A stretch of DNA of 61,740 nucleotides, the filler included, from Hausera hauseri (Eukaryota), in the NCBI GenBank assembly GCA_046269625.1. It is 12 parts of 12 records of this genome, joined end to end, with 100 filler letters (N's around TTAATTAATTAA, not from the genome) between each part and the next. Parts side by side here need not be neighbours in the genome. Positions count along the whole stretch, not along the records: positions 41,980 to 47,184 come from JBJURY010307721.1; 11 more parts are not named here. One strand, written 5' to 3'. Below, in pieces: positions 4,471-60,400 of the stretch (the stretch's first letter is position 1; every line of letters begins with the position of its first letter). Both the position numbers and the translations under genes were made by a program. The notes below the pieces were generated by a model, which ran no database searches, had not been told where the DNA came from, and saw only the letters and a list, made by a program, of their open reading frames with translations.

Positions 4471-4489
4471 AGCGTTTTTTCACGGATGG

Positions 4490-7621: not shown

Positions 7622-8672
7622 ATGGCAGCAGAGAACCCAGCCGTAGCTCAAAAACTTGACATATTTACGTTCGATTCCTTGAATTTACCAGCATACGACG
7701 GCGACCCTGACGTTTTAAACGACTTTTTACGAACCTCTAAATTGCACGCAGGAGGTACCAGTCTTGCACATGAGGTTATGATTAAACAACTGTCTTTATA
7801 CTTGAAAAATCTGGCTGCAGATGCTTATAGTGAACTTACTAATGATGAGAAGAAATCATGGTCCTCTGTAGTAAGAGTTCTAAATGGTAAATTATTGGCA
7901 ACAGTGACACTAGAACAGAAGCTTATGGCCTCCCAGAATAGAACGCAACAGAAGGGAGAGTCAGTTACTCAATTCGCATTCGCACTAAAGAAACTTGCTA
8001 ATAGTTACGTGAGTACGTTAAGGATAGCTAATGCGACAAAGGCAAAGGCAGAAGCAGAACGAGAAGCGGCAGAGAAGGCGAGTCCGCCAGATTTGGATGT
8101 CATGATGACAACGCAGTTGATAAACGGTATATGGTCTAGAGATTTAGTTAAGCAACTAATTTTAGCTCGATCAGACAATTTTGAGACTGCATTACAGTTA
8201 ACGCAAAACTTAGAAATGGCACTATATAGATACGCCAAACCGAGTGATAGATTTGACCGGAATAATGATCGCGACAATCGAGACAGAAACCGAAACAATA
8301 GAAGATTTAACGATAAGGACCGAGGTTATCAAAATAGAGCTCAAAATTCCTCTAACCGCAGCACGAGATATGACAATAAAAACTTTAGTGATAATGGGAA
8401 CACATACAATCCTTATAACAAAACAGGCTATATGTCGGATAGAAACCAAAATAATGAACGAAGCAATAAGAACCGATATATAGATAATCGGAGCTTTGAA
8501 AATAGGAATAACGGAATCGATAAACCAGCTCAAAATAAAACAATGGGTAGACCTAAATCACCATTGAATGAAGACGGGCGACTAAGGATCGGTCGAGACA
8601 GAAATATAATTTGTTATTCATGTGGTAAGGAAGGACACATAGCTAAATCATGCCCTAATCCACGGAGTGTAT
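7622..8672 (+). CDS. gag: Ty3/Gypsy Gag, 3' truncated by gap
   Basis: LPAYDGDP capsid start, RTQQKGESVTQF MHR-like motif, Asn/Arg-rich linker, CYSCGKEGHIAKSC zinc knuckle. Confidence 0.85.
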
Positions 8673-9549
8673 NNNNNNNNNNNNNNNNNNNNNNNNNNNN
8701 NNNNNNNNNNNNNNNNTTAATTAATTAANNNNNNNNNNNNNNNNNNNNNNNNNNNNNNNNNNNNNNNNNNNNACAGACTGTCCATCTGATACGACTGTAC
8801 TGTCAATATGTCGACAGAATTTGAATATTTTTTAGATTTATGGCTGAAGAGACTCGGTATTCGATCCAGCGTTATTTAAATGAGAATCCGAATCCGGATA
8901 ATGAAAGCATCGTTGGGTATAACAATAAAAAGTGCTGCCCTGCGATTGTCGAAATACTGCTCTTATCGCTTTGATGACTTGTTTTAGAGAAACAGTTTTG
9001 GGCACACCGAAACTGTTTGACCTTCTTGTCAAGCGCGAGAATAACATACAAACGTGTATAAAGAGCGGTATGAATTCAAAAATACTCACTAGATTTCCTC
9101 CAGTTGTTTTTTATACGCTTAAAAAATTAAATGGTCTGAGATTGCCGAGCGCACATTCAGCAATCCTCCGGCGGCCAAAATATCCATCATGGATATTCCC
9201 CGGCAGCGTACAGGGATGGACCGTACAGAGCGGAACACGGTAATATTGCTCATTATTGATAAATCAACCAGAAGATTTCTTTTTATCCATTTCAGACATT
9301 TTGTCATAAGCCCTACTGCGATTTTATTTTTTTTCGTAAATGTGCATGTAACATAGGGAATTGAATTTAGATTAGGTGAGTCAAAGATTCTTTTATTCAG
9401 AAGTACTTTTACATTTATAAATGATATAATGTACGATCCCCTTCCATTTGTCATGAATGTTCAATACATGCATCGGGTTTAAATAGCGATGCATAAGGTC
9501 TTTTAAGACACGACGGAAAAGTCAAAAACATTATACATAGCAGAGATGC

Positions 9550-19109: not shown

Positions 19110-21233
19110 GAAGTGGTTTTCGCCGTCCGTATCGTCTCATCCGTGAGAGTGTCATCTGGGGCAATTAGTTCGAATAATGATCGGACAGGAACTCCGAATA
19201 AGGCTTAAGTAAGTGAGCATGCTGTAGAAGTGGACGGAGTGTTCCGCTAGCCGAGCAGAACGAACGGAAGAAGATTCGTCCAATTACTGTTGGACTCTGC
19301 AAGAATTCTTAGTGACGTTTTCAATGTTCGGTGGAAACGTTCTAGGAGGCCATTCGATTGGCGATGGTAAGGCGTAGTATGTATGTGATGGATCTCCAAT
19401 CGGTTAACAATGGGTTTGAACATGTTGGATTCAAACTGTGGACCTTGGTCCGTGATGATGAAGCGAGGTGATCCGAACCTGCTAATCCATGTGCGAATGA
19501 AAACGTCAGCTATGGTGTCGGTGTTTGTGCACCGCAGAGGGATGGCTTCAGGCCATCCGAGGAACGGTCCATCATGGTGAGGATGAATTGATGACCGTTG
19601 TCTAAATGAAAAGGGCCAACAATGTCATATGCATGGACTTAAAACGCGATGTACAGGAAAAGTGGAATAGTGGTGGCTTTAAATGTTTAGTTGTTTTGTA
19701 TTTTTGGCATGTCACACACTCCTTAACCCATGCTTGCACATCAGAACGCATTGACGGTCATATGACTTGTCGATGGAGGAGACGAAAAGTGGCTTTAGCA
19801 CCATGATGGTGTAATGAATGTACGTGGTGAAATGCTTGTCTTTGCAAGGAAGGTGCTAGAATTATTACTGAATGGCCTGATTTAGAGGTGTCTAAAGCCA
19901 CGCCGTCAACGATTGTGCAATATCTAAAAGACTTAAACATGTCTGGAGGTGGCTGATTTTGTTGGAGTTGTTTTTGCGTAAAAATCGGAGAAAAATTAAT
20001 AGAACTAACCGACCTAGATAAAAAATCAGCAACCAAATTGTTAACCCCATTGATATGTTTAATATCAAAATTAAATGTCGATAAGTATGATATTTGTCGT
20101 TCTTGGCGTGTGGAGGGGCGTTTCATGGCCACGATGTTAAGTAAAGGCTTGTGGTCAGTTTGTAGAGTGAAACGACGAGCGACGAGTAAGTGTAAAAAAT
20201 GTTTAAGAGCGAGAACGATTGCCAATAGTTCTCGGTCAAACGTGGAGTATTGAGTTTCAGGTGCGGTTAGTTTGTGAGAAAAAAATTCCAATGGTTGGTT
20301 TTCTCCCTTATAGATTTGGTAGATTACAGCGCCTACAGCAGTGGTTGACGCGTCAGTGGTGAGGATGAGCTCTGCATGAAACTTGGAAAAAACAAGAATA
20401 TCTACAGTTTTGATTCCGTCACAGAGTTTGTCGAATTTATCAACCAATTCAAGTGTCCATTGGATTGGTTGATGTTTCTTGCTGCCGCTTAGGTGTGCGA
20501 ATGGAACTGTTAATTCGAAGCAATATGACACATATTTATGTACAAAGTGGAGTGTGACAAGGAAGCTACGCATTTCGAGGGCTTCGACTCGGTCTGATTG
20601 GGGAGAATGACCGTCTGGTGTGATAACGTGGCATAAGAAGTTAATTTGTTTTTTGAAAAAGTGGCATTTGTCGAAGTTAATCTATAAATTATGGTAATGA
20701 AGATGTCGGAATATTGCGAGAAGGTGTTTGTCGTACTCTTTGGCCGAAGATGAAACGACTAAAATGTCGTCGATATAAAGGTGTGCAAACGAGAAATCGA
20801 AAAGAATTGAGTCGATGTGCCGCTGGAAAGTTTGTGCGGCATTCCGCAAACCAAATGACACGAATAAATATTCGTAGAAGCCAAACGGAGTAGTTAATGC
20901 GGTTTTTTCAATGTCTTCAGATGCTACCGGTATTTGATGGTAGGCTTTAGCTAGATCGATGGTTTAATAGATAGTGGTTGAGTTAAGACAATGCAGGATA
21001 TCCTTGATGAGTGGTAAAGGATATGCGTCAATGATGGTCAAGTTGTTAAGCTGTCGGTAATCACCACATGGTCTAAAGGTACCGTCCTTTTTTTGTACAA
21101 CGTGTAACGGTGAAGACCAAGGAGATTTGGAACGGCGTACTATGCCAGAACGTTCGAGCTCAAGAAATTCGGCTTCTACGGCTTGTCTACGGCGAGGTGA
21201 CAGAGGCCGTACTTTTTGGCGTATTGGGCGTTG
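19110..21233 (-). pseudogene. pol: CsRN1-like pol (RT-RNase H-integrase), decayed
   Basis: SPWSSPLHVV, PCGDYRQLN, YIDDILV, TDAS..YSTFDRELLA..TDHKPL..ADFLSR, DIVGP, TDQGPQF, HRQSNGLLER. Confidence 0.9.
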
Positions 21234-21333
21234 NNNNNNNNNNNNNNNNNNNNNNNNNNNNNNNNNNNNNNNNNNNNTTAATTAATTAANNNNNNNNNNN
21301 NNNNNNNNNNNNNNNNNNNNNNNNNNNNNNNNN

Positions 21334-24300
21334 ATACTGCAATTATTTCGAAAATATCGTGATGTTATAATTTTGAATGATAACAATATCGGTAGAACTG
21401 TCGTTATCCAACACCAGATAATCACAAAAAACAACTATCCCATCAAATAAAATCCGTATAGAATGGCCGAAGTTAAAAAGGAAAAATGTGGTCGACAAAT
21501 GGTACAAATGGTTGAACATGATATTATCAGACCAAGTTTTTCACCATGGACATCCCCAGTAGTATTTGTCAGAAAAAAGACGGAGAACAGTGATTTTTTG
21601 TAGATTTTACAGCATTAAATAATGTTACCAAGAAGGATAATTACCCATTACCAAAAATAGACAAAATGATCATAGCCTTAAGAAATACTGCAATATTCAT
21701 CACCCTCTATTTACAATGAGGATTTCGGCAAGTCGAAGTTGCGGAAAAAGATAAGAAAAAGACAGCCTTCTCTACCGAGATTGTATTATGGGAATTTAAC
21801 GTTATGCCCTTTGGCTTGAGGGGAGGACCAGCAACATTTCCAAGATGTATGAACTTTTAATGCAAGAAGTAATATGTTGTATGGTTTACATAGACGATGT
21901 AATAATATTCGTAGAAAATTTCAAACAACATTTAAAAGAAATATCACAAGTATTTGATAGGCTGAAACAGGCCCACTTGAAAATCAACTTGAAAAAATTT
22001 GAATTTGCCAAAAACACCGTAAATTTTCTTTGACACATAGTGTCAAGCAAAGGAATTCAACCTGACCCACGAAACGTGGATAAATTTAAGAAATTAAAGC
22101 CACCCAAATGTCTTTAGAAAAATGTATGAAAATGTATGAAATGTATGAAAATGTATGTTCTGTCCCACCAACACATGGGGAAGGAGTGTAATCGATAAAT
22201 CAATTTTGCACATGTGCCAATAGATAGTGCACATGGCGCACTATCGATCGGTAATGGCTAGGCGAAGGTGCCGTTAGGCACCGTTGCTATGCACATTTTC
22301 ACATTTCACAAATCGATCGCTGCACATTGCACAAATAATCTAATCGATCGGGACAAAGTGCTAATCGATAGTGCACATTAGTGAACATCGATTGGTGCAC
22401 AGAGCAGGGGCGCAACACGTGCAAGTGTGCCAAAATAAAAATACCCATTTTCCGGTAATGCAAATATTGATGATTGGCACATAGTACCGGGTGCAATCGA
22501 TTGGAAATACAATGTACTATGTAAATGTGCAATTAGAATTTAAATCGATCAAGGACATTTCGAATAATATCGATCCAAAGGGCAACTGAGGCAGACTTTC
22601 CATAGGTCTTTTAGGTCCCAACGAGTCAAAATTCGACAAATGTTTAAGCGGGAACAGATAGTAAGTGCACATTGTAACCCGGGTCTTCCATCTCAGATTT
22701 ATGAAATTCTGTGCACAACTCTAATAATTATCGATTTTCACCGAATAGTATCCATTACCTTGACACTTATAAATTTTTTGAGAAATCTGAGAGCGCCAAT
22801 CGATTTTCCATGTCTTAGTGCATCCATATAGCACTGTTCAGATGTGTAGCACGTGCAAGTATGCTTTAATCAATACTAACGGTTTTGCGATAAAACCTAT
22901 AAAGTTGATTTTAGAACGCGAGTAAGTGGAAATCGAAAAATCTAAAAGCGTACACACATAGAAACTAACATGTGCTGTATCCGCTTATGACATCAGATAT
23001 TTGAAAACTCGAATACAAGTGGAACTTTTAGAATAATTTATTTTCTTTTGGAATAAAAGCAAAAATCAAAAAATCTAAAAGCGTAGAGGGATAGAAATCA
23101 ATATACGAAGAATCCGAAAATGACGTCATATATTCGAAAAGAGGCTTAAATAAGAAAGCCGACTTTTCGATCGATTTCGAATATTCGAATAGTACCACCG
23201 GATTCCCCTTGTCCGAAAACATAGGAAATTCGTATATAACTTTGCAAGTATAGTTAAACCGCTAGTAGCATTAACTAAGAAAGGAACAATGTGGAATTAG
23301 GAAGAATCACACAAACGAGCATTCGAAGTTCTAAAGCAAGTCCTAACTTCACCACCAATACGACAATTTCCTGACCCTAAATATCCATATACAATAATGA
23401 CAGATGCCAGCGGCTATGCTATTGGAGCAGTCCAAGGACAATCTTTTCCAGATAGACCATGCGAAAGAATAATACATGCCTCAGCAAAATTCGGAGCGAA
23501 ACGCAACGCACATAATCAACAATCCAGCGTAAATGCTATGCAATAGTATATTCATTAATATATTTTAGATATTATATAACTGGGCGAGAAATAATCCTAC
23601 ACACCGATCAAAAATCATTACAATGGTTAATGAAACAACGAGATACCAGCCGAAAATTAATGAAATGGGCTGCGGAAATTCAAGACTTAGATATCTCAGT
23701 AAAATGCCGACAAGGAATGGCAAACCCAATGCGAATTTTCTATCAAGACTTCAAGAAAATGATATCGACCAAAGCTATAACGATTGCATAAATCCCCATT
23801 ACGATGATATGCAGGACTTAAGAAAATATTATTCGCAAACAATTCACCCAGATGTACGTAAAGCAATATGAAGAAAACTCACCAAGAATGCAAACCATTT
23901 AATAAGTATGACTATTCAAACATAGAAAAAAGATAACCAACAGAACGCAAGACAAAGTGACTATAAAAACCCATGTGTTGAAAACATCTAATATGAACAT
24001 TACAAAATGATTGACCCAATTTAGACCATGATAAACGAAGTAGATAACGTAGAAGTCAACGAAGAGGTGCACATATTTCTGTCCATACCAATTACGCACG
24101 AAGCCATAACCAAAAAACAAGCAAAGTATGAAGAAATTCGGAAAATCCGTAATAATCTAAACAAAGAAGGGCGAAAAATAAATATAAAATGGATAGGGGA
24201 AATATCTACTATCAAGAGAGCAAAGACTCATGGTTGTACCAAAACATATGCACGCAAAACGTCTACTACACGACCATGACGGACAACTTGGCGGACACCG

Positions 24301-25340
24301 AGGTTATAAAACTAGTATTATTGGCCAAAGATAGCAGGTGACGTAAAAGACTGGTGCACAAATTGTCAAGTATGCTCAAAAAGATGAGGAAAATTTCACG
24401 TAAGAAAAACACCATTAAAACTCTGTACCAGTTTTAGCAACACCCTTCGTCTGCATAGGTGTAGATGTAGTAAGACCATTACCAACCACTGCCATATAAA
24501 ACACATGCGTATTGACAGCAATAGACTACTACTCAAATTTACCGATAGCGATGCCAAATGCTAATTAAACCACGGATGTTATGGCCGAAAGATTAGAAGA
24601 TGACGCAGCAATTGAATATGGAGTGCCATTTACAGTAACATTTAACAGAGAAAGCAATTTATGCAGTGAACTTATGGCAAAAGTACTAGCAATATTATGA
24701 ATTATTCACAAATTTGCTTCACCCTATCATACTTAAGTCAATGGTGCGGTGCAAGCCTTTAATAAACAATTTTCAATTATGATATCTAGTTACGCATATA
24801 ATCATCCAGCTTATTGGGATCTGTATATAAAACCCTTTGTATATGCCTGCTGACAAAGCCCTCATACAGCAACTGTAGAGTCACCATTCTTTTACTATAT
24901 GGTAGACGCAATATCATGCCAGTTGACCTGGAGTATAGACCGTCGCAATAACAACTAATGGAAGAAACCGAATATGGAACAATTTTACAAGAAAGATTAC
25001 AAGAAGCATGGATCAGAGCCGGATTAAAAATTAAATACCACCAAGAAAATTATAAGAATCAATATTATAAGAAGGCCAAACCCCATGTATATTGAATTGG
25101 AGACTAATTCAACATATTGGATGAAATCTGTAAATCGCATGAAAGCCCAAAACTGAAATTACCCTATAAAGGACCACATAAAATACTACAAATAACCGAA
25201 TCAGACTTGAAACTACAAAATTTATCCAACCCTAATAAAACCTCTTGGATGAGTGGACAGCGATGTAGACCAGTAGCTAAGGAACGCAAGCTGGAACAAG
25301 CACCACCTTGTAAATACCAATTAAGAAGTAGAATGCAATT
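21334..25340 (+). pseudogene. pol: Ty3/Gypsy pol (RT, RNase H, integrase), heavily decayed, interrupted at ~22113-23220
   Basis: SFSPWTSPVV, EFNVMPFGL, VYIDDVII, TDASGYAIGAV, NANFLSRL, HDGQLGGHRG, GVDVV, PYKGPHKI. Confidence 0.88.
22113..23220. repeat. Non-coding interspersed repeat inserted in pol, starting with (AAATGTATG)n
   Basis: Interrupts the RT/RNase H connection; 22190-22980 is collinear with 27760-28565. Confidence 0.7.
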
Positions 25341-25379
25341 ATATGACAAGAATACAATGGTCGCATTCATGGACGACGG

Positions 25380-25720
25380 ATCGAACAATAGAGTAACCAC
25401 AACCGTAACCATAAGCAAAGTCAAAATAGAAGCAATAGTAGATGCAGAAGCAGCAAAAAATTATTTAAGTAAAACTACGATGGAGACACTAAAATTGAAA
25501 TTGACCGAAAACAGTGAAATCAATCACAAGTTAATAAACGGAAACCAATTGAGAGTAATAGGCGTAATCACAGCCTTAACTAAATTAAATGGGAAACGTT
25601 CAAAGATCCTGTATCACATACTAGAAAATATTACAATTCCCTGTATTATAGGTCGAGGTACGCTAATAGATTATGATACAGTGGTAGATGTAGCTACGAA
25701 TTCACTGGAAAAAAAACAAA
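25380..25720 (+). CDS. Retropepsin-like domain downstream of integrase (degenerate active site)
   Basis: VTISKVKIEAIVDAEAAKNYLS...INGNQLRVIG...PCIIGRGTL, in frame with the integrase GPY/F motif in ORF 25117-25749. Confidence 0.65.
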
Positions 25721-27509
25721 AGATTAGGACAAATACCGAAAAAATATAAATGAATTGGAAGACGAAATAAAAAGGTTTGAACTGCTATATAACATGCACT
25801 ACAGTCAAAGTGATAACGATTATCCCCTTTTGACACCAATATTGGTCAGAGTATATAGTAATTATGTTAATGCGGAACTTTATCCCACAAACCCATTGAC
25901 TCGTATAAACCTACGGTTATAAATACGAATTACCCATTATATACCCTAAGCTGGTGGTAAATTAAACCTAACTATAGGATATATAGATGTTATTTGTTTT
26001 GCCAACCCACAAGAGTCGTATTCTAATCTCACTATTGGTTTAGATGTACTATAAAAGTTAATTGGAGCAGAACTCAAAGTCATCTCTCGATCTAACGTAT
26101 TCAACGGCGATGGCTACCAAGATAAAAAACCTGAACCTAATGATCACTGGTGGTTCGCGTCGGGAAAAGAGAATGTTCCACCCTCATTAAACTATGTTAC
26201 TTTAAATCAAACTACCGAACAAAATACAGAATCTACAGTAGCCCGGGAAATAATGCAAACCCGAGTAGCAGAAACACCCTCAGCTAATACTCCAAGAGCG
26301 ATTTTTGGAACTCCCTTTAATTTTTCTACCATAACCTTGATAACCTTAATACTATTCATAATACTTAGATACGCAAACACCCAACCAACCCAAACAACTA
26401 CTACAACTGACTCCTGGATTAGTACAGTGGTATTATTGCTAATATTTGTATATTAAATATTCCAAAATAGTACTACATGCGATGAAGAAGAAACAGATAA
26501 CCTCTTTTCGAATGATCATACAAGAAGACAAGTACCCCTACCTTCAGTAGTTAATGCGGACACATATTCAGTATCTAACGTAACGAGTATCCCAAAGAAA
26601 TTACCACAAAACTCTTCACGCGATATATCAAGAACTACATCGACAGCTTCTATGTATGTTTGACCTAACAGGAGTACAAACGACGAGCCAAGTCCACGCA
26701 CCTACAAGTTATACAACCATAAGTAAAAATTATAAGAAGCAGAGAAGAATATCAGACTCATAAGAAAGGAAACTAAAAGGTACCAGCCTGATAAAACCAA
26801 GAAACTCCCAGTAAATCATAAACCTAAATCAATGAGATCGGATCACGTTGAAAGAGCATAACACAAAGAAACCAAACCATTAGAACAAAATTATGCTGAA
26901 CTACGCCAACAAAAAGGAAAAAGTCTACCACCATTTCCTTTAACGCAAGAGGCTGCAAATCGACATCGATTATAGAATTTCCTACTGGTCACCCCAGAAC
27001 GTATTAATTATGCTCAAGAACTAGTTCAAGGGATCCATAAATCGTGTAGCGGAATTAAGAGATTTTTTCGTTAAGTATCATGAAAAATGGGGGATAACAG
27101 ATGAACAATATAGGCCCATANNNNNNNNNNNNNNNNNNNNNNNNNNNNNNNNNNNNNNNNNNNNTTAATTAATTAANNNNNNNNNNNNNNNNNNNNNNNN
27201 NNNNNNNNNNNNNNNNNNNNTAGCATAATTACGGATTCATGCATGCTTGTATGTGAGCAAGGCTTACCTTGGATTTTGTTTAAACTAATCAATTTTCAAA
27301 TTATGTGGCAAGTTCATACAGTTGATGCACTAAAACAAAGGTACAAATGCGGTATGTTGGCAATACAAGTGCAACATGTTGGCAACAATATGCTGTACTG
27401 AATTTACCCTACCATTAAAATTATTTATTTCCCCTTACATTTGTGTTTTGTTTTACTGTATCAATTATCAAATTCAAATAAAAATAGACAGCTAACGAGA
27501 ATCTGGTAT

Positions 27510-36330: not shown

Positions 36331-36720
<390 letters not shown>

Positions 36721-41879: not shown

Positions 41880-44789
41880 NNNNNNNNNNNNNNNNNNNNN
41901 NNNNNNNNNNNNNNNNNNNNNNNTTAATTAATTAANNNNNNNNNNNNNNNNNNNNNNNNNNNNNNNNNNNNNNNNNNNNAGTGTATCATTTGCAGAGACT
42001 AGTAAAGCTAGCACAATAAAAGATAATTTGGAAGGAATCTACGGAAAACGAGGTGATATAAGTATGATTATCGAGATGCAGGACTTACGAAGATATGTGA
42101 AAAATATGGGCGAATCTAATAATCCACAAGTAATCAAGGCAAGGAAGGAGTACGAAGAGAAGCCGCAGCAAATGGAGGTTTATCATGGGTTGAGAGAACC
42201 AAAAACGGAGTACGAAAAAATTATAGCACATACTAACATGGACAGGAAGAAAAATCTAAATCAAGCAGCGAAAGAGGAGAAGGAAGAAAAACCGACTACG
42301 TCTTCAAGTGTAGACTTGGACGCAGATACCGAAATCGTGTCTCAAAATAAAGAAAAAACAACGGACGAAGTTGAAAATGAATTCATTGGGACAATAATAG
42401 AGGTAGAAGCCCCTCCCTTAGGAGAAGGTCGGGAACTCGTTCACGATCCCCTATTAAAAAGGTTGTAGAAAAGGAGGAAGACTTCACCATCACTTTAAGA
42501 GACGAAACAGAGTTAAATACCCCTGTAATAACTCAAGACGTTCCGGAAACAACAAATATTTCATATATTGATGAAAGTAATGAAATATGTCCGTTAACAT
42601 TTAGCGAAGAGGAATCAGAAGAGGAAAAGTCTATAAAATTTGGGAAAATGAGAAAATATTGGAAAAATGCAAGCGAACTAACCAAAACAAGAGACGTACT
42701 GAATGATCCCGAAAGGCTACCGGAAAGCTTACAGAAACTCCAGAAGATGAGCAAACAGTTAGATATCTCCGGAAAAGAACAACAATTCATAGAGAATCTA
42801 TATAAAAAGCTTAAACCCGGTTCTCAGAAGAAGGACGAAAACACACCTTACAAACTGCAAGAAACGCCACAAGACTTGATAGAAAGTTGGCGAAATAAAT
42901 TAGAATTGTGGACAAGGAGTGAAATTGATTTTTCGAAAATATGGTGGAATAGAAACGAGCCATTTCTCGAGCAAGTTAATCAAGCACGCGGATTATTAAG
43001 CATATTAAAGGATAACCCAAAACTAAAACACGTAAGACGTAATTTAGAAGGGTTAATATGAGATAGAAAAGGCGATACTTTCTTACCTCCATAACAAGCT
43101 AGGATACGAACTGACCAATGCCGACTTAGAGATATTGGGTATAGACCCAATCGATATTCCACCTCTAATAGCAATGTGCAGCCTGATAAGAGATAACTCT
43201 CGGAAATATCCAGATTTTAAAATTTGGATGGAAAGAGAAGACGAAATACGAACCAAAATTAACGACTGTAAAATCGGTGTAGTTCACCCGGAAAGAACAG
43301 AAGCACAGAGAATAATACGTGCTTGTCTTCTCGAATTAGACGAGTATAAAGAAGAATTCAACTACATGAAGCATATTATAGAATTTGTACGAGGGCCAGA
43401 TCACGAACTAAAAGAAGCCCTTGAGATATTAGATGAAATAATCTACACCAAACCGGCAATATCCAAACAACTAAAGAAGTGAATTGACTTGTTACCTTTA
43501 ATAGTAGGGATAGTAAACGAAAGACTAAGAGAATTCACCGTGGTTGAGCCCACAATGAGGCACCAATTGGAGGAAATGTTGCTGGATATCGGTACGATGG
43601 AAGATGAAGCGAAATTACGAACTAAATTCGAATTATTTCGAGAACGTGAATTTATGAGCAGGGATCAAGAGCGAACAACATTAACAGCGATATATAGTAT
43701 GATAGAAGAAAAGGAGTTCTACAGAAAAAGAAGCAAGCTAAGTGATCTTCAGCGGAGTTTAGCGAACATCCGTTGAGAAGGGATACAGAACCTAATGCAG
43801 AAACCGTTGAAAGAAATCTCAGCACAGGAAATAGAAACATTAGAAGTATGTAACGATCACCGAATTGCTCTGGCGCAAACACTACAATATCTACAGAATC
43901 CAGCAGAATGGACACCAGGTTTCGACCTACATTGCCACACCGAACTAACGGAAATTCGGAAGGATCTTCAGTTGACTGCCGACGAATCTAAGTTCATAGG
44001 CAGGCTAATGGATGCAATAGATCCGGACGCTGAAGTATTAAATCAAATGCACAAATTAATCCTACTATTAACAGAAATGGCAGAAATTGACGAAGTAGTA
44101 GCCAGACGACTGACGAATCAAATACGCTCGATAAAAGAGACTCGGTTACGTTCCGAGAAAAGACAGCGCGAACTAAATGAATTGCTGAGAGAAACAGAAG
44201 TTTACAAGAACAAGTATTCCTTTACGGAATCTGAAATGAATGACAAAACGGAATTTATAGAGATGGCAAAGAGACAGAATCGCAGAAATGACTAGTTATC
44301 AGGAGAAAGCCCTAATACAACCAGAAGAAATGTGCCGATTAATAACATTGATACAACAAGCGTGCGAAAATAAAGACGGATTTAGGATGTCCGTAATGAA
44401 AACATTGCAATCGCAGATAAGATAATTACGAGAGAGAGTCCAAGTCGGACAGGCGGCACTAATGAACTACAAGTTACCTGACGCGGATAATGATGCCGAG
44501 TGGGATGAATATTTCCAAGGTCTAACCAAGAAAAGTCCAAGAACTCCGATACAAATTTATGAGTCACCAACTGGTGTGCAGAAAACGAAATTTGATGTGC
44601 AAATGTTACTTGATCCCACGCTAGCTGAAAAGGAATTAAGCAGTATGTTGAAAATAAACAAGCGAAGATAAGTTAAGGAAATTGATTCCGACCTTGACTA
44701 AGCTATTCAGCGAAAATATCGCATACAGCGCCGTACCCAAGCTCTTAATAAGAGAGTACGCCAAACTATTGAAAAATAAACCGGAAGCT

Positions 44790-45010
44790 TAAATTAAAGT
44801 GAAAGTATCGTCTGAAGGAATGGATGACGAGGAATTTGAATGCACTACCTATACCACCGTTTGGGACATAAAACAGCGGATAATGGATAAGGGTGGTAGG
44901 GAAGGGGTTAATTACCGACTCTACTTCAGAGGTAGGATATTAGATGATCTAGAATTTCTAATAGACGTAGGGATTATACCACTCGAAGCGAACCAAATAA
45001 TAGCCATAAT
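44790..45010 (+). CDS. Ubiquitin-like domain within the element polyprotein
   Basis: TTVWDIKQRIMDKGGREGVNYRLYFRGRILDDLEFLIDVGI fits the Ubl pattern T(I/V)..(V/I)K..I....G......RL.(F/Y).G+.L.D...L.D.GI. Confidence 0.7.
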
Positions 45011-45191
45011 CGACAGCGAGCAAACCAAAGATGAAGCCATGAGAAAGGCACATACAGAACATTGTGTTGGGAAAATCATGGGGATCCAAGATGCCGCAAT
45101 GTATTTCGAATACTTACAGACTGATGATGAAAAACCGCAGTACGATAGGAACTTAGTCCCCCTAAGCGAAACCTTACCACCAATAAAAGCG

Positions 45192-45218
45192 AAACGACCG
45201 GTCGGAAGACCGAGAAAG
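45192..45218 (+). CDS. AT-hook motif
   Basis: KRPVGRPRK. Confidence 0.65.
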
Positions 45219-45710
45219 ATAAAAGAAATTGATTATAATGTAGATATGATTAGAGAATTGAGACAACTATTGGTACCAACCCCGAGTTCAGATAACGACG
45301 AACTAATTGAGCTAATGAAAGACCTAATCAGGTTAGTCAGCTACACTGGACTCCAAGGCGACATATTATCTGAAAAAGAAAGATTAATATATAATATAGT
45401 TCGGACAATGAAGACTTCGCGATTCAAATAATCGAAAAGCACCCTTCCTGACGAAACCGTAATCGACAGAATTATGATAGACAATACGATGGAAGAATTA
45501 AGGAAAGTCTTAATATATTTAGCGGTAAGAACTAACCCTCTCCGGGAAAACGAATTTGACAAGACAATTGTGTTAGCTAGAAAAGCTGCGAGAAGGGTAC
45601 CTAAGGAAATAAAATGGACTAAATTATTTGAAAAACAGGACAATGCGAAAAGGACCAATAACTTAGAGGACATAGTACGAAACATCTCTTCGAGAAAAGG
45701 GAACGAATTG

Positions 45711-47460
45711 ATTTGGTTAATCAGTCTACTAACTATAATGATGTTAGTGAAGCAGATGGGAGCAGTCACCATATACGACTGTGAAAATTTAAAGTGGGCC
45801 AGAAATATTCCTTGATGGACTTAGAAACATGTGAGGATGCGAGGTCCCACAAGCTCCAGACAATAGAGAAGAGATATATATTATATCAACAACGTGAGTT
45901 AATTGCAATGGATGCAACAGAATGCATGATAAATAGGTCTCGCTGCATATTTCATTGTGGTAATATGCACGGCCATTCTTCAATAATCAAACCTACCACA
46001 CCATTGATACCAATGAACGTGGATATGCAACATTGCTTAGGAGCCCGGTCAACCGGCAAAATGGTTTGGGACAGCATGGAATTGGAAGCCCAAGAAGGAA
46101 AAATAATTAGAGCCTACTAAGTGGCAGTAGGAAAATTGAACATTCACACCGGTTATTGTGTTGGGGAAGAATATGACACAAGGAAGGGAATAGAAGGAGG
46201 AATTAGTCGTAGATTTTTATGAAACCGAGTTAAGATCCTTAAAAGCGATGTTTCATAACGTTACCAAACTATTCAGCGAAAATCAGAAATGTCACATTCA
46301 TGATGGTGCTTGCACGTTCCGAATTTTGGTTATCGTATGGAATCCACCCTCCAAGATGGATTGCAATTTCATCAAAATCAGAGTTAAAATTTAATGAGAC
46401 CATGGGAAGCGTTATTCGAGCAATTTACATACTAATACCAGGTCAAGAGAAGATGTAATAGAACAATCCACACCGACGATATTAATATCAGACGTGCACG
46501 GGTTAAAATTTATTAGAAAGTTTATGTTATCACGTTGCGATGTAGTTATGTATGCCACTAACTACGAAATATTTTTTGTAGCAGAAACAGAAATCGACTT
46601 GAAAACGTATGATTTAAAAACACAAGGTGTGCGGATTGAGGCTTACCTCAAAAACCGAGACGACTATTTCTATTACAAAGGGTAGACCGGAATAGCGGAA
46701 CTATATCACAAAATGATAAGAAATGACTGCAGATTAGACCTGAAGTCATAAGAACTAAACTGGCTTTAATTTACGCCAAACCAGAATTGGCATCACCAAT
46801 TATTCCAATGAAAGACGGTGTTTTCGGGCGAGTTACAGGAGAAGTCCTATTAACTTACGAATGTGAGAAAAGAGACGTACCAATCAACTTAGAGGAGAAA
46901 ATATGCATGCAAGAATTACCCGTCATCTATGAGATTATGCCGAGATTAGCGATGCCACTCACCAGAGTATTATTGGCGAACTCAACCGAACCAACGATGC
47001 TGAAGGAATGTAAAACGAGCTTAGGCCAACCAAGGTTTAGACGAAGTGGAACCGATTGGATAACTCTACCAAATGGAGGTACGGCCGCAGCCCCTAGTAA
47101 ACTAACCGGGACAAATCTAATCAAAGGATTATCGGAAGATAAATTCGAAGATACAGCTAATAAAGGAATTTATAGGCCAAAAGANNNNNNNNNNNNNNNN
47201 NNNNNNNNNNNNNNNNNNNNNNNNNNNNTTAATTAATTAANNNNNNNNNNNNNNNNNNNNNNNNNNNNNNNNNNNNNNNNNNNNGGATTCTTAGCCATCT
47301 ACTTCTTAGTCCAGTTAATTAAAGCAGTGATCCAAGCTATTATAAACGGATATGAAATATTCACCTTGACAGGATTGTCTTGCAAACTTTTGACCGCAAT
47401 TATCACAACCTTTGGAAAAATTCTTAAGGTTTACAAAGAAAATCGCTGGAAAAATGAAGT
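45711..47460 (+). pseudogene. env: Chuvirus-like (class III/gB-like) envelope glycoprotein with signal peptide and C-terminal TM
   Basis: LIWLISLLTIMML..AVTIYDC, YSLMDLETC, LYQ, ECMINRSRCIFHCGNMHGHSSI, GYCVG, C...DGAC, GEVLLTYEC, CMQELPV..MPLTRVL, KGIY, TM GFLAIYFLVQLIKAVIQAIINGYEI. Confidence 0.78.
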
Positions 47461-48109
47461 AGAACGCCACGTCGGGTGTTATAACCGCAAATGCCGAGGG
47501 AGGTTTTTGATTTTGTATAGACGTAAAAATAAGTCAACAGTAACACGAAAGGATAATTCAGATGATGACGAGCCTAAGGGAGGAGAAGTGAGATCTAGAA
47601 TGAAGATGCACAATATGTACTCAGTGATTAACGCGCTGTTACCTACAATGCCGCCAACAGCACCAATATGTGAAGACTGCGACCGCAAATTAATCACACC
47701 ATGTAGATCAGAAATCTATCAAAAGCCCATTAATTATGAAGATCCTTATAAGAAGAAAAAACAATATGTAGTACTACGGAAAATGAATATTATCAACCAA
47801 AGACCTACAGAGAACAACCATGGAATATTGTACTCAAAAAGAATACCGCGCCACATAGAATCGAAATCAACGATCTGGGAAAAACCGAAACTGTGTTCGA
47901 TCTCGGGCTAACTACCTCAGGAACCGCTAATTAGCAGTCGCGTCAATGAGACGGCAAATAATAATTTATACCCAAACAGAGAATTAAGACAGTTAAGAGA
48001 AAATATTTTCTCATCGCCAGAAATAACGATAAACGGACACAGTCTCTACTATAAAACGGTCAAAGATAGCGTCAAATTGCTAAGGAACAGCAGCAGAAAG
48101 GAGACCCTT

Positions 48110-51100
48110 CGCTAAAATACACATCGAAGATTTGGAAGTGTATTTATTAATCGACACAGGATCGCAAACATTATTTATAAAATATGACTCTATACCAACC
48201 ACATTGCGAGATCAGCTATGTCCGCTATTATCGTCAGATCCTGGTAGCGTAGGAGCATTTGGGCAAGTATCGAAGCCGAAATTTAAATGGACTCCTACTG
48301 TTCATATGATGGGCCAAGCGCTCCAACATAAATTTGCGATAATGGACCAGTTAACAAATGATGTAGTACTAGATTGTGATATATTGAAACAGATACCAGG
48401 CATAGCAATCGATGTGCATAACGGAAAATTAATTGACCTCGAACCAATAAAAGGGACAAAAGTAATAAAGGAAAGGAAATGGGGCGAAGTATGGATTCCG
48501 GTAGATGAAGACATTCCGCCCAGAACTAAAATGATAATTATCGCACAAATTCGTCAAGACAAAGACCTACCAGTATATTCGAACCTTAAGAGAATATCGA
48601 TCCAAACCTTATGTTTAGCAATATCTTATGTATATTAGTGACGGGAAGAATACCCAGCGGACTAATTAACAATGCAACAATTCCGGTAAGATTTCACGCT
48701 AACACTACTTTAGGTAACACTTGCAGAGTATCAGAAGTAACGATATAGGAAAAGCCGTATAAGTGAGCTGAATTTCCGCCCTACGTTAAAACCAAACTCT
48801 CTCCTGAGGCATATTGCAAGTTCTACAAATTACTATGTTAATACCGTTAAATAATTGCGCAAAATGAGGAAGACATAGGCAGAGCAAAGGCCCTGAGATT
48901 AACAATCCCATTAAGAAAGAAACCATGCTCGAATGACAAAATCAATCTAGAAGAACAGAAAATGCCCAAATGGTACCCACTTCCTCATTCATTAAGACCG
49001 GAGATAACCAAAGAATTAGAGCGAATGTTAAAGGCCGATATAATTCGCCCAAGCTACCGATCGTGGTATTCACCTATACTTATGGTTAAGAAGAAAGGAA
49101 CCACGAAACATCGGTTTTGTATAGATTATCGCGCATTAAACACACTGATGATGAAAGACTCGTTCCCTCTACCATCAGTAAAGGAAGCTTTAGACAAACT
49201 ATCAGGAACAAAATGGTTCACCACTCTCGACTTACAATCGGAATATTGGCAAGCGGAAATCGAAGAAGAAGATCGATATAAGACAGAGTTTAAGACACAC
49301 GATGGCGTATACGAATTTAATGTTATGTCCTTCGGCATCACCACAGGACCAGCTATTTTTACTAGAATGATGAATAAGATGCTCATGGGACTTGATCATG
49401 CTTTCGCATATTTAGGCGACGTAATGATAGCATCAAAACAGAGGAAGAACACTTAAAAGACATTGAAAATACACTCATGTAACTGGAACAAGCAGGGTTG
49501 AAACTAAATTTAAAGAAATGTAAATGGGCACGGAACGCAGTATCGTACCTCAGACACATAGTTGGAGAAGGAGGATCAAAACCGGATAAATCCCTGCTAA
49601 ATAAAGTAGCCGATTGTATGGAACCGCAAAATCAAAAAGAGTTAAGACACTTGTTAGGCCTATGTGGGTATTACGCCACTTACGTACCGGATAATTCTAA
49701 AATTAACGCACCACTATACCGCTACTCAAAAAAGGAACTAAGTGGAGATGGACGGAAGTGGAGCAAAAAGCATTCAATGAAATAAAGAAAATTTTGACAA
49801 GCGACCCAGTTTTTAGAAACCCTGATTTTAACCTACTATTTATCATTAAAACCTATGCAAGTAAAAAAGGTATAGGATATGAACTAGCTCAGAAACTAGA
49901 AGATGAAGAACTAGAACACCCAAAAGCCTATTGAGGACGCTCATTAAAGAAAGCAGAAAAGAATTATTCGGTTACTAAATTAGAAACGTTAGCCGTAAAG
50001 GAAGCACTACGACACTTTAACGTTTATGTCTATGGAGAGAAGATTATAATAGTGACCGATCACAAAGCAGTTACGACATTGAAAGGATGATCTAATAACC
50101 AAACATGTAGATTAAACCGTTTGATAGAGAAAATCTCACAATATAGCATTGAATTCTAATACAAACTAGGCACTAAACACGTCGACGCAGACGCACTATC
50201 AAGGTTAAAGACAAAAACCAGTGGGATTATTACAGCGAAGAAAACGCAACTCGAACAAATAGTTGAACATCAAAGAACTCTAACCCTGGATAAAACGATC
50301 AGGACCACCGCAGAGCAGGCTAAAGATAAGATTATTCAGTAAATTGTTGAATTCACACAAAACGGCAAAATACCCAAAGGACGGCAACTGAAGAAGCATC
50401 TGAAGAAACACGGACACAAATACAGCGCATCGAATTAAGATAATATCCTATATTATGAACGAAAAGGAAAAAGACTAATAGTTATTCCAAAAGAATTAGG
50501 CGTCGAAGTAGTCATGGCTGAACATGATTCGTATTTAGCTGGACACATGTCTTGGAAGAAGACATTGGAAAGGATATTAAATAGATACTATTGGCAAAGC
50601 ATTTACATCGATGTAAAGAATTGGGTAGGTGCTTGCGAAGTTTGCGCGACAAAACAAAAGGAAACGAAAGGCTACGTAGCGGAATTAAAACCCATAAACG
50701 TACCAGATAGGCCCATGCAAGCTATGTTTATGGATATAGTGGGACCTTTGCCTAAAACTCACAAAAATGACATATATTTTAACATGCGTGGATCAATTAA
50801 CACACTTCGTCGAACTAGTGGCACTACTAGATTAAAGGCAGAAACTTTAGCCAACGCAGTGGTAAGAAAAATCATCTGCAGATATGGATTACCAGAACAA
50901 ACCTTACCGGATAGAGGAAGAAACTTCACAAGTGAATGATTCGAAAAAATTACTAAGATATTCGAAATCGAACGATTAACTACTACCGCGTATCACCCCC
51001 AATGTAATGGAATGGTCGAGCGAATGAACGCAACAGTCATTCGAATACTATCAACAGTAGTGATCAAAGACCAAAAGGATTGGGACGAATTCCTAGAAAG

Positions 51101-51139: not shown

Positions 51140-52084
51140 CCATTAAAACGGATGCTAGAAGAAAATATAGCTAGTATAACAAAAAACCCAAAGGATAACT
51201 GTATCCAAATAAACACAAAAGGACGGTTGATTAAAGGACGAGTAATCACAGTTCAATTCATAAGGGATGACAAATCAACTCATAATCAACAGTAACGTCA
51301 AACTGACGTCGAAAAGCCGAATAAATGTTGAAAGTTATCTCAGAGATATAGATATAAAATCCGGTTAGACTTATATGAAGTTCGACTGAACCAGTCGAGT
51401 ATTTACCTAGGAAGTTATCAATTGGAAAATCCAATTTGGGGAATTCTGCCTAAGACGAAAACAAGCAAAATTACGACTACAAAAACAAATACAACCACGT
51501 CTACATCCACCAAAATCGTCCAAACGAGTGGATTACCTCAGAAGAATCTAGAAATGATTCCTATAAAATATTGGACGCAACAATATGAAATAACGTTCAT
51601 TGTGGAAGAAGCACTGAATTACGACGTAAAAATAAGCTGCCGAACATTATACAACAATCAGAAAGTGACACTGGCTAAAGGAAGCCATCGAATTAAATGC
51701 ACCTACTTAGAACCCAAAACAGACTACATAATACAAATAGGTGCAGAAAATAAACAAAGTAAAACGTTTACGGTTCGCTACCTAAACGAGATTGTCTTAA
51801 CGAAACCATTAACTAACGAGGAAACAAAAGATGAAATTACGACTACCGCTAAAACGAAAAAACTAAATAGACAACTTTGTCATTAATATAGATTGTTGGA
51901 ACGTCAACGTTTGCTCTCATAATTTTTATTGCACTTTGCCGATTGATTACCAAAAATTGTTACAGTAATCGTCACAAAATCAACGAGAGGGAATTAAGGG
52001 TGATGATACCGAAGGATGAAATCAATGATGGAATAACCTGACAGTTACAGATAGAGTTATTCCGCCATCAAACAAAGAATTGGT
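51140..52084 (+). pseudogene. Putative type I membrane protein: FN3-like domain(s), Thr-rich stalks, TM, cytoplasmic tail
   Basis: CTYLEPKTDYIIQIGAEN (FN3 L.P.T.Y...V.A.N signature); TKTSKITTTKTNTTTSTST; LSLI*IVGTSTFALIIFIALC-RLITK. Confidence 0.55.
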
Positions 52085-52184
52085 NNNNNNNNNNNNNNNN
52101 NNNNNNNNNNNNNNNNNNNNNNNNNNNNTTAATTAATTAANNNNNNNNNNNNNNNNNNNNNNNNNNNNNNNNNNNNNNNNNNNN

Positions 52185-52600: not shown

Positions 52601-53989
52601 CAATGATTTCCGACGCCGTCCACATCATCGCCCAGCTTGGGTATGGTTGGAAAATCCCCGCCCCTGGCATCTCCGCTAAAGCGGAATTTGATCGTTTGTA
52701 ATTACTCATTGAAAAGTTAACACCAGTTGTTGAAAATTTTATTGTCTCTCAAAATACTCATTTGGGAACAAATTTTCCGAAATTACAAAATTAAATTATA
52801 CTTTTAATATTACATTTTTAAATTAAATTCATGGTTGGATTTTTAACATTTAAAAATGCTTCGAATTTAAATTTAGAATTTCAGTTCTCGATTATATCCT
52901 CACAATATAAATGTGATATTTTACCAATGACACATGCATAAAGTATTTTGTAAATCTGTGTAAATTAATTTTAAGTTTATTCTACAATTGGAAAAATTAT
53001 TATAAATATCAGTTTTTAAGGTTTGTAAACTCATGTCGCACATATCATTAATTAGCACATTCTATGCGAGTACGTGGATGTGAAGCTCGTGTTAACTCGT
53101 TTCCTGCGCAGAATGTGTTTCTGAATTATAACACTTAGGAAATTCAAATAATAATTATAAATTTCGATTTTACTAATATTTAATTCTTGTTGGGCGTTTC
53201 TAAAATTGTCCTTCTCCAAAACAAACCCAATACAAAATAATACACCATTGTATTTGTTGAGCTCAGCTCATCGTCATTATCATCTTCGAAAATTGTGCAA
53301 CTGCAGCAGGGAACCATAGCGACGAAACAACTCAGCTAGGCACTCAGGTTTCTTTGGAACGATAATCTCAACACTGTCGGTTCCGCTTTCTACAACAAAT
53401 CGTAGCCCTCCATCACCAGCATACCCAACCGCTACACCTTCCAGAAATTTGTGTCTGAAGGATGCGGCTTGAAATTCGACGCACCAACCACGAATCATTG
53501 TCTCCACCCCAAACAATTCAGATCATCCATCGATTCTCCCAATTAACCCAAATTGCCACACAAACACCGCAGACACTCATTTCACAAATATTCGTCCTCT
53601 TGCTCCAATGGGACATTGCATCATTAAAATTTAAAACAAGACCCAATGTTCGAGTACTTGCACACAATAAAACTCCAAGGCGAATAAACTCATACCTTGT
53701 TGAGTGATCACTCCCCCCCCATCCTAAGCCGAGGTAGCCTCTCTGTTCTTAACAGGGCCATGGTCAGAAACAACTGATGATCTTCATGAACAAAACTCAA
53801 TTCATCGTAAGACGTATGCTTACAGACTCTCTCCACACTGACATCTTTAATATCCGTCTTTGGAACGACAAGAATTAATAACTTTTCATCAGCCGTTTTG
53901 TAGTCCAAAATAATAAAAAAGAAGCAACTTGATTGATTCCATTGTCGCACATTCTTCCTTCTTCCATTCCTACACCAATTTCAAGTGAA

Positions 53990-55245
53990 GTTAATTCAAA
54001 CGCACCAGCATCTGTAAACGCATTTGTCTTCAATAGCATTTTAATGGCCTTTAATCCATCATTAATAGCCTCTTTGATTTGTGTTAAAGTATGTTTATTC
54101 GGTCCTCTAATCAACAAAGTAACTGACAATGGATTTCTGCATTCCTCAATAAATGTAAATTTCACATCTCCAAGAGCATATTCATAAACAAGACCGGTAT
54201 AACCCAGACAATCTGGTGCTAGTTCTTCAACACAATTTACGGCATAATCACCACAGGCTAACGCCATTCGTTCCACGTTTCTTCGCTTAGCACGTCGTAG
54301 AGCTAAAATTCCTTCTTTGGCAAGCATATCCAACGACAAAGGATCAATTCCTTTTTGGTTTATCACAACAAAATTATATTTAGAATCACCTTGGGCTGCA
54401 GCTTCATCACAAACCTGTCTCTTCAGAGATATAATTTTTTGAACTCGTTCGTCAGTGAATTGTCTTTCGGCTTGGACTAACTTTTCTCGTTTAACTGCAC
54501 TCTTGTAGAAAAAACTACTGTTTATTTCAGTTTTTTCATATTCCAACGACACATTGCATGTTAAGATAAATGCATTTTTAACCCTCTTGGGCATGTCCGG
54601 ATGACGACCACCATAGTTGAGTACTAATCCCTTGACCAATTTACTATCCATATCTCGTTTATGTTGCATTTGCATAATTTCCAAACGATGAAGATCCAGT
54701 GCAGAATATGAATCATAAACACTCAATACAGCGTTTACGATATGATCGCTCAACATTTTAGCCAAATCGCAGTCCAATTTCGTCTTTACGGACGTTCCAG
54801 CGACGTTAACTAAAGTTTGACGATCGAGCTTTTCAATATCTGAAAACGGTTTCGTTATTTTCATCCTTTCTAAGACTTCAAGTGCCTTCACTTTTGCAAG
54901 ATCGAAACCTTCGGTAATTAGTCGAGGATGAAATGACTGCATATATAGTCCATCATACATTAATCCATCAGCCTACGTCAATAATTCTGCGATCATCAAT
55001 ACGATGCTTGTCGTTCCATCACCGGTAATATGATCTTGAGCAGCCGCAGCTCAAGCAATTAAACTAGCATCTTTGGTTAATTTAATATCTCCAGCTGCAG
55101 ATACCAACATCTTTAAAGTTCCTTTCGGGCCAAAATTGCTCTTTAAGACATCAGAAAGGCCTTTATAAGCTGTAAGATTGATATTGAATGCATTCTGTGA
55201 CTTCGCATATTCAGCTTTGGGATTTAATAAAGCTATTGACGCCAT
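53990..55245 (-). pseudogene. CCT6: T-complex protein 1 subunit zeta (CCT6) pseudogene, essentially intronless, 3' truncated
   Basis: [93 protein letters not shown]; in-frame stops and deletion of the GNVLL..HPT segment. Confidence 0.92.
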
Positions 55246-57419: not shown

Positions 57420-60400
57420 TTTTGGCAGGTGATAAGCTAAGAGGTGAAGTAGAAATAGGCGAAAGTATAGAAATAGGGTGTGGAGTAGAAATAGTGATAA
57501 AAGTAGGAGTAGAAGGAAATGCAGAAATGGGTGGAGGAATGGAATTGGTAGGTGACGATGTAGGAACAGAAACGGGAGCAGCCAAAAAACGTCTGGTAGA
57601 CTGGGGAATTGAAGTCGGGGTAGAGGTAAATACAGGGGTGAGAAAGGAGGTTGATGCTTCGGTTGGTGAGGTATTGTCGATGTAAAAGGCGGTTTTTAAA
57701 TTAGTAATATACACTACAACTTCTTTCCCGTCTTTGAGGATAATAGCGTTGTGCGAATACAGCTGCACCAATTTATATGGTCCTAAGTACTGTGGCTGAA
57801 AACCTCACGGTGTCTGTTTTTTTAGCCACACAAACTTTGCCGAGTATAAGTCTTCGGGTATGTAAGAATTCTCATTATGCAAGAGCCTGCAAAACGAATC
57901 CTTGCTGATTGTGACGAAATGATCCTGTGCTGCTCGTATCCTCTTGTCTCTTCAGGAGCCGTTAGTTCAAACAGTGGCAGTACAGGGGTTCCGAATAAAG
58001 CTTCCGTTGGTGAGCATCCTGTAAAAATAGACGGAGAGTTCGCCAGCCAAGCAGAACGAACGGAAAAAGAGTAGTCTAATTTGTGTTGCACTGTGCAAGG
58101 ATTTTGAGTGATGTTTTCAAAGTTTGGTGGAAACGTTCGAGAAAGCCGTTCGATTGGGAATGATAAGGTTTTGTATGAATGTGGCTTATAGTCAATCGGT
58201 TGACCAGGGATTTAAACAGATTTGACTCGAATTCCGGACCTTGGTCTGAGATGATATAATGAGAAGACCCTAACCTACTAATTCACGTACGGATGAAAGT
58301 ATCGGCGATATAATAAGACGATATAATGAGGAGACCCTAACCTACTAATCCACGTACGGATGAAAGTATCGGCTATAGTGTCAGTGTTTGTGCTCCGCAC
58401 TGGGATTGCTTCCGGCCATCGTGAGGAACGGTCCATCATGTTGATAGTAAATTCGTGGTCGTTGTTTATTGGAAGAGGACCGACGATATCTATATGTACT
58501 GTTTTAAAACGTGATGTGAGGGGGAAATGATATAATGGTGGTTTTAAATGTTTTATATTTTTAACAAGTTACGCACCGTTTAACTTATGCTTGCACATTG
58601 GGCGCATTGACGGCCAAACTACTTAACGTTGGAGTAAACAAAAAGTTGCTTTGGCACCAGGATGATGTAACAAATGTATACCATCAAATTCTTTTTTCTG
58701 TAAAGATTTGGCAAGAATTATTTTAGATTGTCCTGGTTTGGAAGTATTTATGTCAACGCCGTCAACGATGTGGTGAGACTTGAGCGACTTGCGGATATCT
58801 TGAGATGGCTGATTTTCTTGGAGTTTTGTCTGAGTAACAATTGGCAAAAATTGATTGAATCGACTGATCTGGATAAAAAATGGGTAACACCGTCAATATG
58901 TTTAATGTCGAAGTTAAACGTGGATAAATATGAAATTTGTCGCTCTTGTCGAGTTAAAGGGTGTTTCATTGCCATTATATTAATCAGCGGTTTGTGATCA
59001 GTCTGCATAACAAAATGACGAGCTGTAAGTAAGTGAAAAAAATGTCTTAAAGCAAGAACTATTGCCAGCAGTTCCCGATTGAAAGTTGAATATCTAGTTT
59101 CTGGCGGCGTTAATTTTCTGGAAAGGAATTCTAGGGGCTAATTTTCGCCTTTATACAACTGCTGTAGTATGGCACCTACTGCGATGTTTGGTGCATCTGT
59201 GGTCAAAATTAGCTCAGCGTCAGGCTTAGGAAATGCTAGTATTTTAACAGTTTTAGTCCTTCGCGAGGCCTATCATACTTATTAACCAGTTGTAGTGTCC
59301 ACATGATTTTCTGGTGTTTTTTTCCTCCCCTTAAGTGTGCAAAAGTGCCGTGAGTTCTGAACAATATTGGGTATATTTGTGGACGAAATTCAAGGTACCA
59401 AGAAAACTGCGCATTTCTGTGGTTGTTTTAGGTAGTTGGACGGTTTTAAGAGTCTCAACTAGATCAGGCTGAGGTGAATAACAGCTTAAAGAGATAATAT
59501 GTCCAAGAAAATTAACGCGTTTTTGGAAGAAGTAACATTTTGTAAAATTGAACTGTAGGTTGAACTCATTACGTCGTTGGAAAATATATCGTAGGTGTTC
59601 CTCGTCTTGTTTAGTGGAAGAAGAAGCAACCAAGATATCGTCAATATGTGTGTGCAAAAGGGAAGTGTGAAAGGATTGAGTCAACCTGTCGCTGAAAAGT
59701 CTACGCAGCATTCCAAAGACCGAAATGAATGTACAAGTACTTATAAAGACCGAAAGATGTGGAAACTGCAGTTTTCTCGATGTCTTCCGGTGCGACAGGA
59801 ATTTGATGGTATGCTTTGGCCAAATCAACTGTTGAGTAAACTCTAGTAGAATAAAGCCGATATAATATGTCTTTGATTAATGGTAGTGGATATACATCAG
59901 TTATGCTTAAAGTATTATGCTAGCGGTAATTGCCGCATGGTCGGAAGGATCCATCTTTTTATACAACGTGGAAAGGCGAAGAGCATGGGGATTTAGATCT
60001 GAGAACAATACCTGATTGTTCAAGTTCCATAAATTTCGCCTCTGCTGCCTGCCTGCGACGCGGTGACAATGAATGGACTTTTTGTAGAATTGGTCTTTGG
60101 TGTTGTGTAATTATATGGTGGTAAATGCCATTTATAGGGGTGGAATTTCGATCTTTCTGAAGTATACGAGGACAAGAAGTGTGGATGAATTGTTGTAAAC
60201 GTACTCGCAGTTGCTGGAATATTGGACGTGACGATGAACCAAGGTTGCTAGCAGTACTTGGTGAATGTTGGTTGATTGTCGGCGGGGAGTCGAGTGGAAT
60301 TTGATGTAGGATGTTCGTGTCTGAAACCTTATTCGAGTAAAAGTTGGTGTTCAATGATTTTACTGAAGATGCAAGATCATGAGCGTCGATATTGAGCTGT

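Follow-up and report, generated by a model that had tools for sequence, protein, structure and literature searches.

In this study, we have analysed a window of 61,740 nt of DNA from Hausera hauseri (GCA_046269625.1; the window is the whole stretch analysed), and our main finding is a ubiquitin-like domain (Ubl) without a C-terminal diglycine, which selection has maintained in the accessory part of an envelope-bearing Ty3/gypsy element, where it probably (we put the probability at about 0.6) acts as a docking module and not as a cleavage signal. A Ubl that lacks the diglycine can be neither conjugated nor clipped as ubiquitin is, and for this reason an integral docking domain is the best reading. 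The domain (44793-45014, +) lies in positions 41,980-47,184, which come from JBJURY010307721.1, one of the contigs of ~4-6.5 kb each that make up the window with a 100-base N spacer at every join. There are eleven such spacers, from 4490 to 57096, each a fixed 100-base run of N carrying a 12-base linker that puts stops in all six frames. Adjacency across these spacers requires separate support.

The Ubl domain is real. It forms the first 74 residues of an ORF of 212 aa (44793-45431, +), and residues 1-76 taken alone match the Pfam ubiquitin profile PF00240 at 27.4 bits (E 2.8e-6), above the cut-off of 25.4, in agreement with the ubiquitin-like pattern that an earlier note on this DNA had seen in a retroelement ORF. 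The whole ORF scores 24.7 bits (E 2e-5) over residues 2-61, and residues 19-61 align with ubiquitin from the PDB with identical numbering, the identity to ubiquitin being 17/61 (28%). When 1.84 billion protein representatives were searched with the ORF, the 61 matches were tandem-ubiquitin proteins aligned on its Ubl part, with the best stretch always starting at residues 9-22. Since the E-values of these matches sum over repeats, and since tblastn of the 61 representatives against the window gave no match at 1e-5, they point to no donor or related element, and no donor gene of the Ubl can be named. A ubiquitin-type profile made from 106 repeats cut out of the same 61 proteins gave the ORF 24 bits, compared with 9.4 for the best of its shuffles (2000 made, 1580 reported). 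In an Atlas feature search, 9/10 of the best named matches belonged to one family or clan, of ubiquitin type, and we take this as a lead only, with every score below 0.9. GC per codon position in the Ubl (0.50/0.30/0.41) is that of the element (0.53/0.30/0.39 in the region upstream), without any sign that the capture was recent; it would be old. The earlier note was also right that a C-terminal GG is missing: the single GG of the ORF lies at residues 34-35, within the fold, and residues 66-90, at the end of the Ubl, hold no glycine.

Whether a beta-grasp fold is predicted, as the earlier note asked, depends on the model. The single-sequence AlphaFold model reached pLDDT 66 with no beta-grasp match (best Z 4.9). 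A second model, built with a 13-row ubiquitin alignment that is correct at residues 1-60 and misaligned beyond, reached pLDDT 79 and a likeness to ubiquitin that is partly circular (Foldseek E 3e-6; VIA Z 12.3, rmsd 1.8 over 73). It shows every element of the fold in sequence, strand-strand-helix-strand-strand-strand, and ends with a strand at 67-74; that this fifth strand was placed from residues outside the correctly aligned part speaks for the fold. The Ubl would resemble the integral (type II) Ubl domains of Parkin, Rad23, Dsk2, OASL and BAG6 as a beta-grasp inside a larger protein with no diglycine. No single subfamily is favoured: across 50 rows of structural comparison (Z 10.2-12.3) none stands out, for a model that is biased to ubiquitin.

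Both the Ubl and the basic motif KRPVGRPRK that follows it are a property of the family, beyond the window copy. The copies were read from one run (X1), the sole run containing the stretch; the assembly may have been built from it, and it does not count as an independent occurrence. No RNA run containing the stretch was listed. The family is high-copy, with 10,170 contigs of this run aligned on 42200-47150 (4951 bases), 3840 of them less than 90% alike, and depth in 30/30 bins. Among the joints listed, a 416-base contig with 74 differences (~82% alike) runs across the upstream junction and through the entire Ubl, and KRPVGRPRK is spanned by two further contigs (55 and 84 differences). The domain is thus no private insertion of one copy, the outcome that the earlier note had held against its own proposal. 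On 44760-45300, 1525 contigs have no indel listed in the ORF; loose ends and one indel row occur near 44660. Three contigs, each single and of low depth, lack parts of the ORF (KRPVGRPRK in one case), and we read these as decayed copies. The stop just before the Ubl is private to the window copy, as 99% of summed depth at 44790 (63 contigs) has another letter.

The differences among these copies argue that the domain has been maintained. For the selection test, 40 of 95 difference sites were listed and one before the ORF was dropped, which leaves 39 sites from one run, considered by position only. Among the sites listed, third-position differences number 27/39 (p 5e-6), with 24/33 where the copies vary versus 3/6 private to the window copy. 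Within the Ubl, the same listed sites give 11/18 in third position (p 0.014) and 7/18 in first or second, and after it 16/21 in third position, and on these counts constraint looks weaker in the Ubl than downstream; within KRPVGRPRK, both listed differences are third-position. The occurrence of the Ubl in diverged copies, together with the excess of third-position differences, suggests that purifying selection maintained the domain in an active family.

As judged from profile matches and frame reading, the element itself is a decayed Ty3/gypsy with the order accessory region, Ubl, signal, fusion glycoprotein, protease, reverse transcriptase (RT), RNase H and integrase. It is bounded by the N spacers 41880-41979 and 52085-52184, between which neither gag (Pfam) nor flanking long direct repeats were found; its 5' end is at a spacer, its visible coding part of ~3300 codons is broken, and the copy in the window is dead. 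If stops and frame breaks are read through, the contig at 41980-47184 forms a single long coding region. Its upstream accessory region (41980-44792, +; ~930 codons) starts at the N spacer and has several stops or frame breaks, one of them near 44660; pieces of it that were scanned gave no Pfam match under E 0.01, and no gag or zinc knuckle was recognised. Near its start there is, by eye, an arginine/serine-rich basic stretch (42400-42450, +), a possible second nucleic-acid-binding patch. The Ubl and the basic motif are followed, in the frame reading, by a probably helical segment (by eye) of ~165 codons with one stop at 45429-45431 (45219-45716, +), and then by a hydrophobic stretch (45717-45773, +; Kyte-Doolittle 19-mer 1.82) that directly precedes the fusion-protein match and is likely the internal signal peptide of env. 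The Ubl module thus stands ~230 codons upstream of the signal-like stretch and the viral fusion glycoprotein, the main context of the domain, which the earlier note had missed.

The env remnant (45806-47455, +) matches PF24664, Monjiviricetes_fusion, in three pieces, with E 4.7e-19 (profile 37-163), 8.6e-8 (341-482) and 9.5e-9 (552-609). It is broken, is interrupted by the 100-base N spacer (47185-47284) at which the Ubl/env contig meets the pol contig, and carries a C-terminal hydrophobic stretch at 47288-47344, a likely transmembrane segment. The env profile is collinear across the spacer, stopping at profile position 482 before it and restarting at 552 after it, which makes the join of the two contigs credible; they could nevertheless derive from different copies. 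In the pol contig, Pfam gives the PR-RT-RNase H-integrase order of Ty3/gypsy, all on the + strand: an aspartyl protease (48096-48395; RVP E 9e-4, 19.9 bits for a cut-off of 20.7), a frame-broken reverse transcriptase (49085-49551; RVT_1 E 2e-21, second piece E 0.004), an RNase H with stops (49749-50144; RT_RNaseH_2 E 8.7e-30, RT_RNaseH E 6.2e-26) and a broken integrase with zinc-binding domain and core (50484-50999; Integrase_H2C2 E 1.7e-16, rve E 2.7e-4). The ~230 codons from the protease to the RT match, where Burro has a dUTPase-like region, are frame-broken and had no Pfam match. After the integrase, at 51614-51939 (+), a possible FN3-like domain, for which all Pfam matches are below cut-off (Pur_ac_phosph_N E 0.003-0.014, fn3 E 0.07-0.13), is followed by a hydrophobic, transmembrane-like stretch (51883-51939, 2.48); together they may be a second membrane cassette ending the polyprotein.

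The closest published system is Burro, a group of giant Ty3/gypsy elements of planarians, with a polyprotein of 4900-5100 aa that begins with gag and in which a Ubi2/SUMO-like domain lies between MATH and BCL-2; gag and pol flank an in-frame env that resembles the fusion proteins of mononegaviruses (Arkhipova and Yushenova, PMC6431247). This description bears on the view of the earlier note that such a domain is not standard in Ty3/Gypsy, which holds for ordinary elements and fails for Burro, where a Ubi/SUMO-like domain before an in-frame env had already been published; in our search of the open-access literature it is the only report of a SUMO-like domain and an env in a retrotransposon polyprotein. 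According to the same source, Burro/GYPSM1 shares with our element a long accessory region, a ubiquitin-superfamily domain upstream of env, a very high copy number, an env between accessory region and protease with mononegavirus glycoprotein likeness, and the order PR-RT-RH-IN. Here too env (PF24664, 45806-47455) lies upstream of the protease (48096), by a link that spans one N spacer. There are clear differences from the published description (PMC6431247). The best match here is ubiquitin (PF00240), that of Burro being Ubi2/SUMO-like (PF11976), two matches set apart by description; an AT-hook-like motif follows the Ubl here; a possible FN3-like domain and membrane anchor come after the integrase here; and the visible part of our element has no match to BCL-2, MATH, BIR or ankyrin. 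In particular, Pfam and PDB sequence search found no BCL-2 in 45219-45716, where Burro has one; these domains of Burro came in part from HHpred (PMC6431247), whose sensitivity exceeds that of either search. Our element therefore appears Burro-like in layout, and its membership in Burro, which would also call for a length above 25 kb, a planarian host and an RT that groups with theirs, is unproven.

Elements of GAG-ENV-POL order have also been described among gypsy elements of nematodes, bryozoans and flatworms (Chary and Hayashi, PMC13524379). These errantiviruses, with an env of HSV/gB type, are like our element in having env upstream of pol with signal-like and transmembrane flanks, and unlike it in that ubiquitin, AT-hook and fibronectin are absent from the main text of that paper (PMC13524379). 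With our results, the Burro-type design, a stack of host-like regulatory domains followed by an env in the same frame, is seen in one more very abundant family. They also place the Ubl under selection, whereas the published description of Burro consists of domain annotation only, and a Ubl of 74 residues offers a tractable handle on the suggestion made for Burro of an interference with host ubiquitination (PMC6431247). For the time being, the Ubl counts as one more cargo domain of a kind already described.

One possible mechanism for the docking reading would start at the env signal, where the polyprotein would be threaded into the ER. As the signal-like stretch stands immediately ahead of env, everything upstream of it, including the Ubl and the basic motif, would remain cytosolic. 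Signal peptidase, at a cleavage predicted from hydropathy, or the protease of the element could then free the accessory piece or leave it tethered to the membrane. The Ubl would bind a protein partner through its changed surface, and, judging from what Burro elements carry, this partner would most likely be a factor of the host ubiquitin pathway. The patch L8/I44/H68/V70 of ubiquitin has become E/Y/I/I in the Ubl, and this alteration of the classic hydrophobic patch weakens the host-factor step.

The same alteration is what gives weight to the first alternative, which we consider unlikely yet worth keeping in mind: that the Ubl serves a structural or intra-element purpose (as an aid to solubility or folding, a spacer, or a contact with the element's own capsid or protease) and has no target in the host, and that the motif binds the RNA of the element. 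Integral Ubl domains with such roles occur in coronavirus nsp3. In our Ubl, the I44 patch is altered and the positions of the linkage lysines K48, K63, K11, K6 and K29 are all non-lysine, and the constraint is moderate; AT-hooks are moreover able to bind RNA (PMC11354804). Against this alternative, Burro-type accessory regions hold many host domains linked to ubiquitin and apoptosis (PMC6431247), which argues for cargo aimed at the host, as the docking reading would have it.

The second alternative, which takes up the chromatin tethering proposed in the earlier note, places the freed accessory piece in the nucleus, where an AT-hook would sit on AT-rich chromatin and the Ubl would recruit host ubiquitin or chromatin machinery, steering expression or integration. 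It depends on KRPVGRPRK (45192-45218, +; residues 134-142 of the ORF), which begins 60 codons past the end of the Ubl, just as the earlier note had it. The further claim that the motif is an AT-hook stands in part. Like AT-hooks of the HMGA type (PF02178; PMC11354804), it has a GRP core with basic and proline flanks; unlike them, it has V for the first R of the central RGR (VGR) and is present as a single copy, with a score just below cut-off. On a 23-residue piece, Pfam AT_hook gives 17.1 bits for a cut-off of 17.4, that is 0.3 bit short, and within a 340-residue reading 12.3 bits, which would make the motif a borderline AT-hook. Chance is a poor explanation for it: the pattern GRP[RK][RK], picked once the motif had been seen, has a single occurrence when all six frames of the window are read and, with the same post hoc definition, turns up in 119/20000 shuffles of the 1295 upstream residues. 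The third-position nature of the listed changes in the motif and a host DNA of ~35% GC also favour a nuclear role. However, the central RGR is important and short lone hooks are weak DNA binders (PMC11354804), and the motif lies more than 5 kb upstream of the integrase, beyond env, and is therefore not part of the mature integrase. A tethering of integration is unlikely at this distance, and weak nucleic-acid binding or nuclear import by the lone motif, which would fit the docking reading, seems more likely. Overall, we regard the nuclear alternative as improbable. The same low standing applies to a wider conjecture: that giant env-bearing gypsy elements captured ubiquitin-family domains repeatedly, and that in this lineage the env leader became a nuclear AT-hook/Ubl protein, which signal-peptide cleavage would set free and which, bound to chromatin, would recruit the host ubiquitin machinery or act as its decoy.

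Processing by a deubiquitinase requires a terminal glycine. For this reason a pestivirus-type processing signal, which the earlier note had brought in and by which host deubiquitinases would cut the polyprotein at the Ubl, is very hard to sustain for an old, diverged domain whose end has none, although the position within a polyprotein with further products downstream would suit it. Pestiviruses are known to carry inserts of ubiquitin, NEDD8, SMT3B and LC3-type sequences, and those of BVDV share with our case a ubiquitin-family sequence within a viral polyprotein (PMC13517609). Those inserts are strain-specific and host-derived (PMC13517609), whereas our Ubl is family-wide, matches the rest of the element in composition and, at its low identity to ubiquitin, is unlike recent viral inserts; in addition, a protease is encoded by the element itself, along with the signal-like stretch. 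Finally, that the Ubl is a functionless passenger or a chance likeness can practically be set aside, in spite of the failed single-sequence model and the first- and second-position share of its listed differences, given a profile score far over the shuffles, the third-position excess and the ORF without listed indels in 1525 contigs.

Relatives were also looked for outside the window. A word-indexed protein search confirmed none for the ORF (0/860 longer candidates, 0/77 of similar length), and pattern matches were confirmed in neither metagenome nor viral contigs (0/163 and 0/10). With the env-to-RT part, a search of long polyproteins returned 1/1801, an ordinary chromodomain gypsy protein with 39% over the RT. 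In the open-access literature, no report was found of an AT-hook in a gypsy LTR retrotransposon polyprotein, and nothing related under the terms of a captured ubiquitin-like domain in a gypsy retrotransposon.

Elsewhere in the window, a second Ubl-like profile match at ~35840-35680 (-) has 4 stops and E 0.002, and we set it aside as chance or very old debris. A GC-rich island lies at 36400-36700 (55-66%, against ~33% around it), and 36382-36528 (-) encodes half an immunoglobulin I-set domain, like those of Robo, DCC or receptor phosphatases; this coding piece looks like a foreign exon scrap. Further gypsy fragments, with RNase H, integrase, zinc knuckle, protease or RT, are found at 417-4472, 7451-8728, 19758-21854, 25108-25749 and 59644-60075, and the RT of these other fragments is 31-45% identical to that of the Ubl-bearing element. 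In the first of them, an ORF (2979-4472) comes after an integrase. Beside the Ubl-bearing element, at 53875-54972 (-), an uninterrupted ORF of 365 codons encodes a TCP-1/cpn60 chaperonin (Pfam E 1.9e-79).
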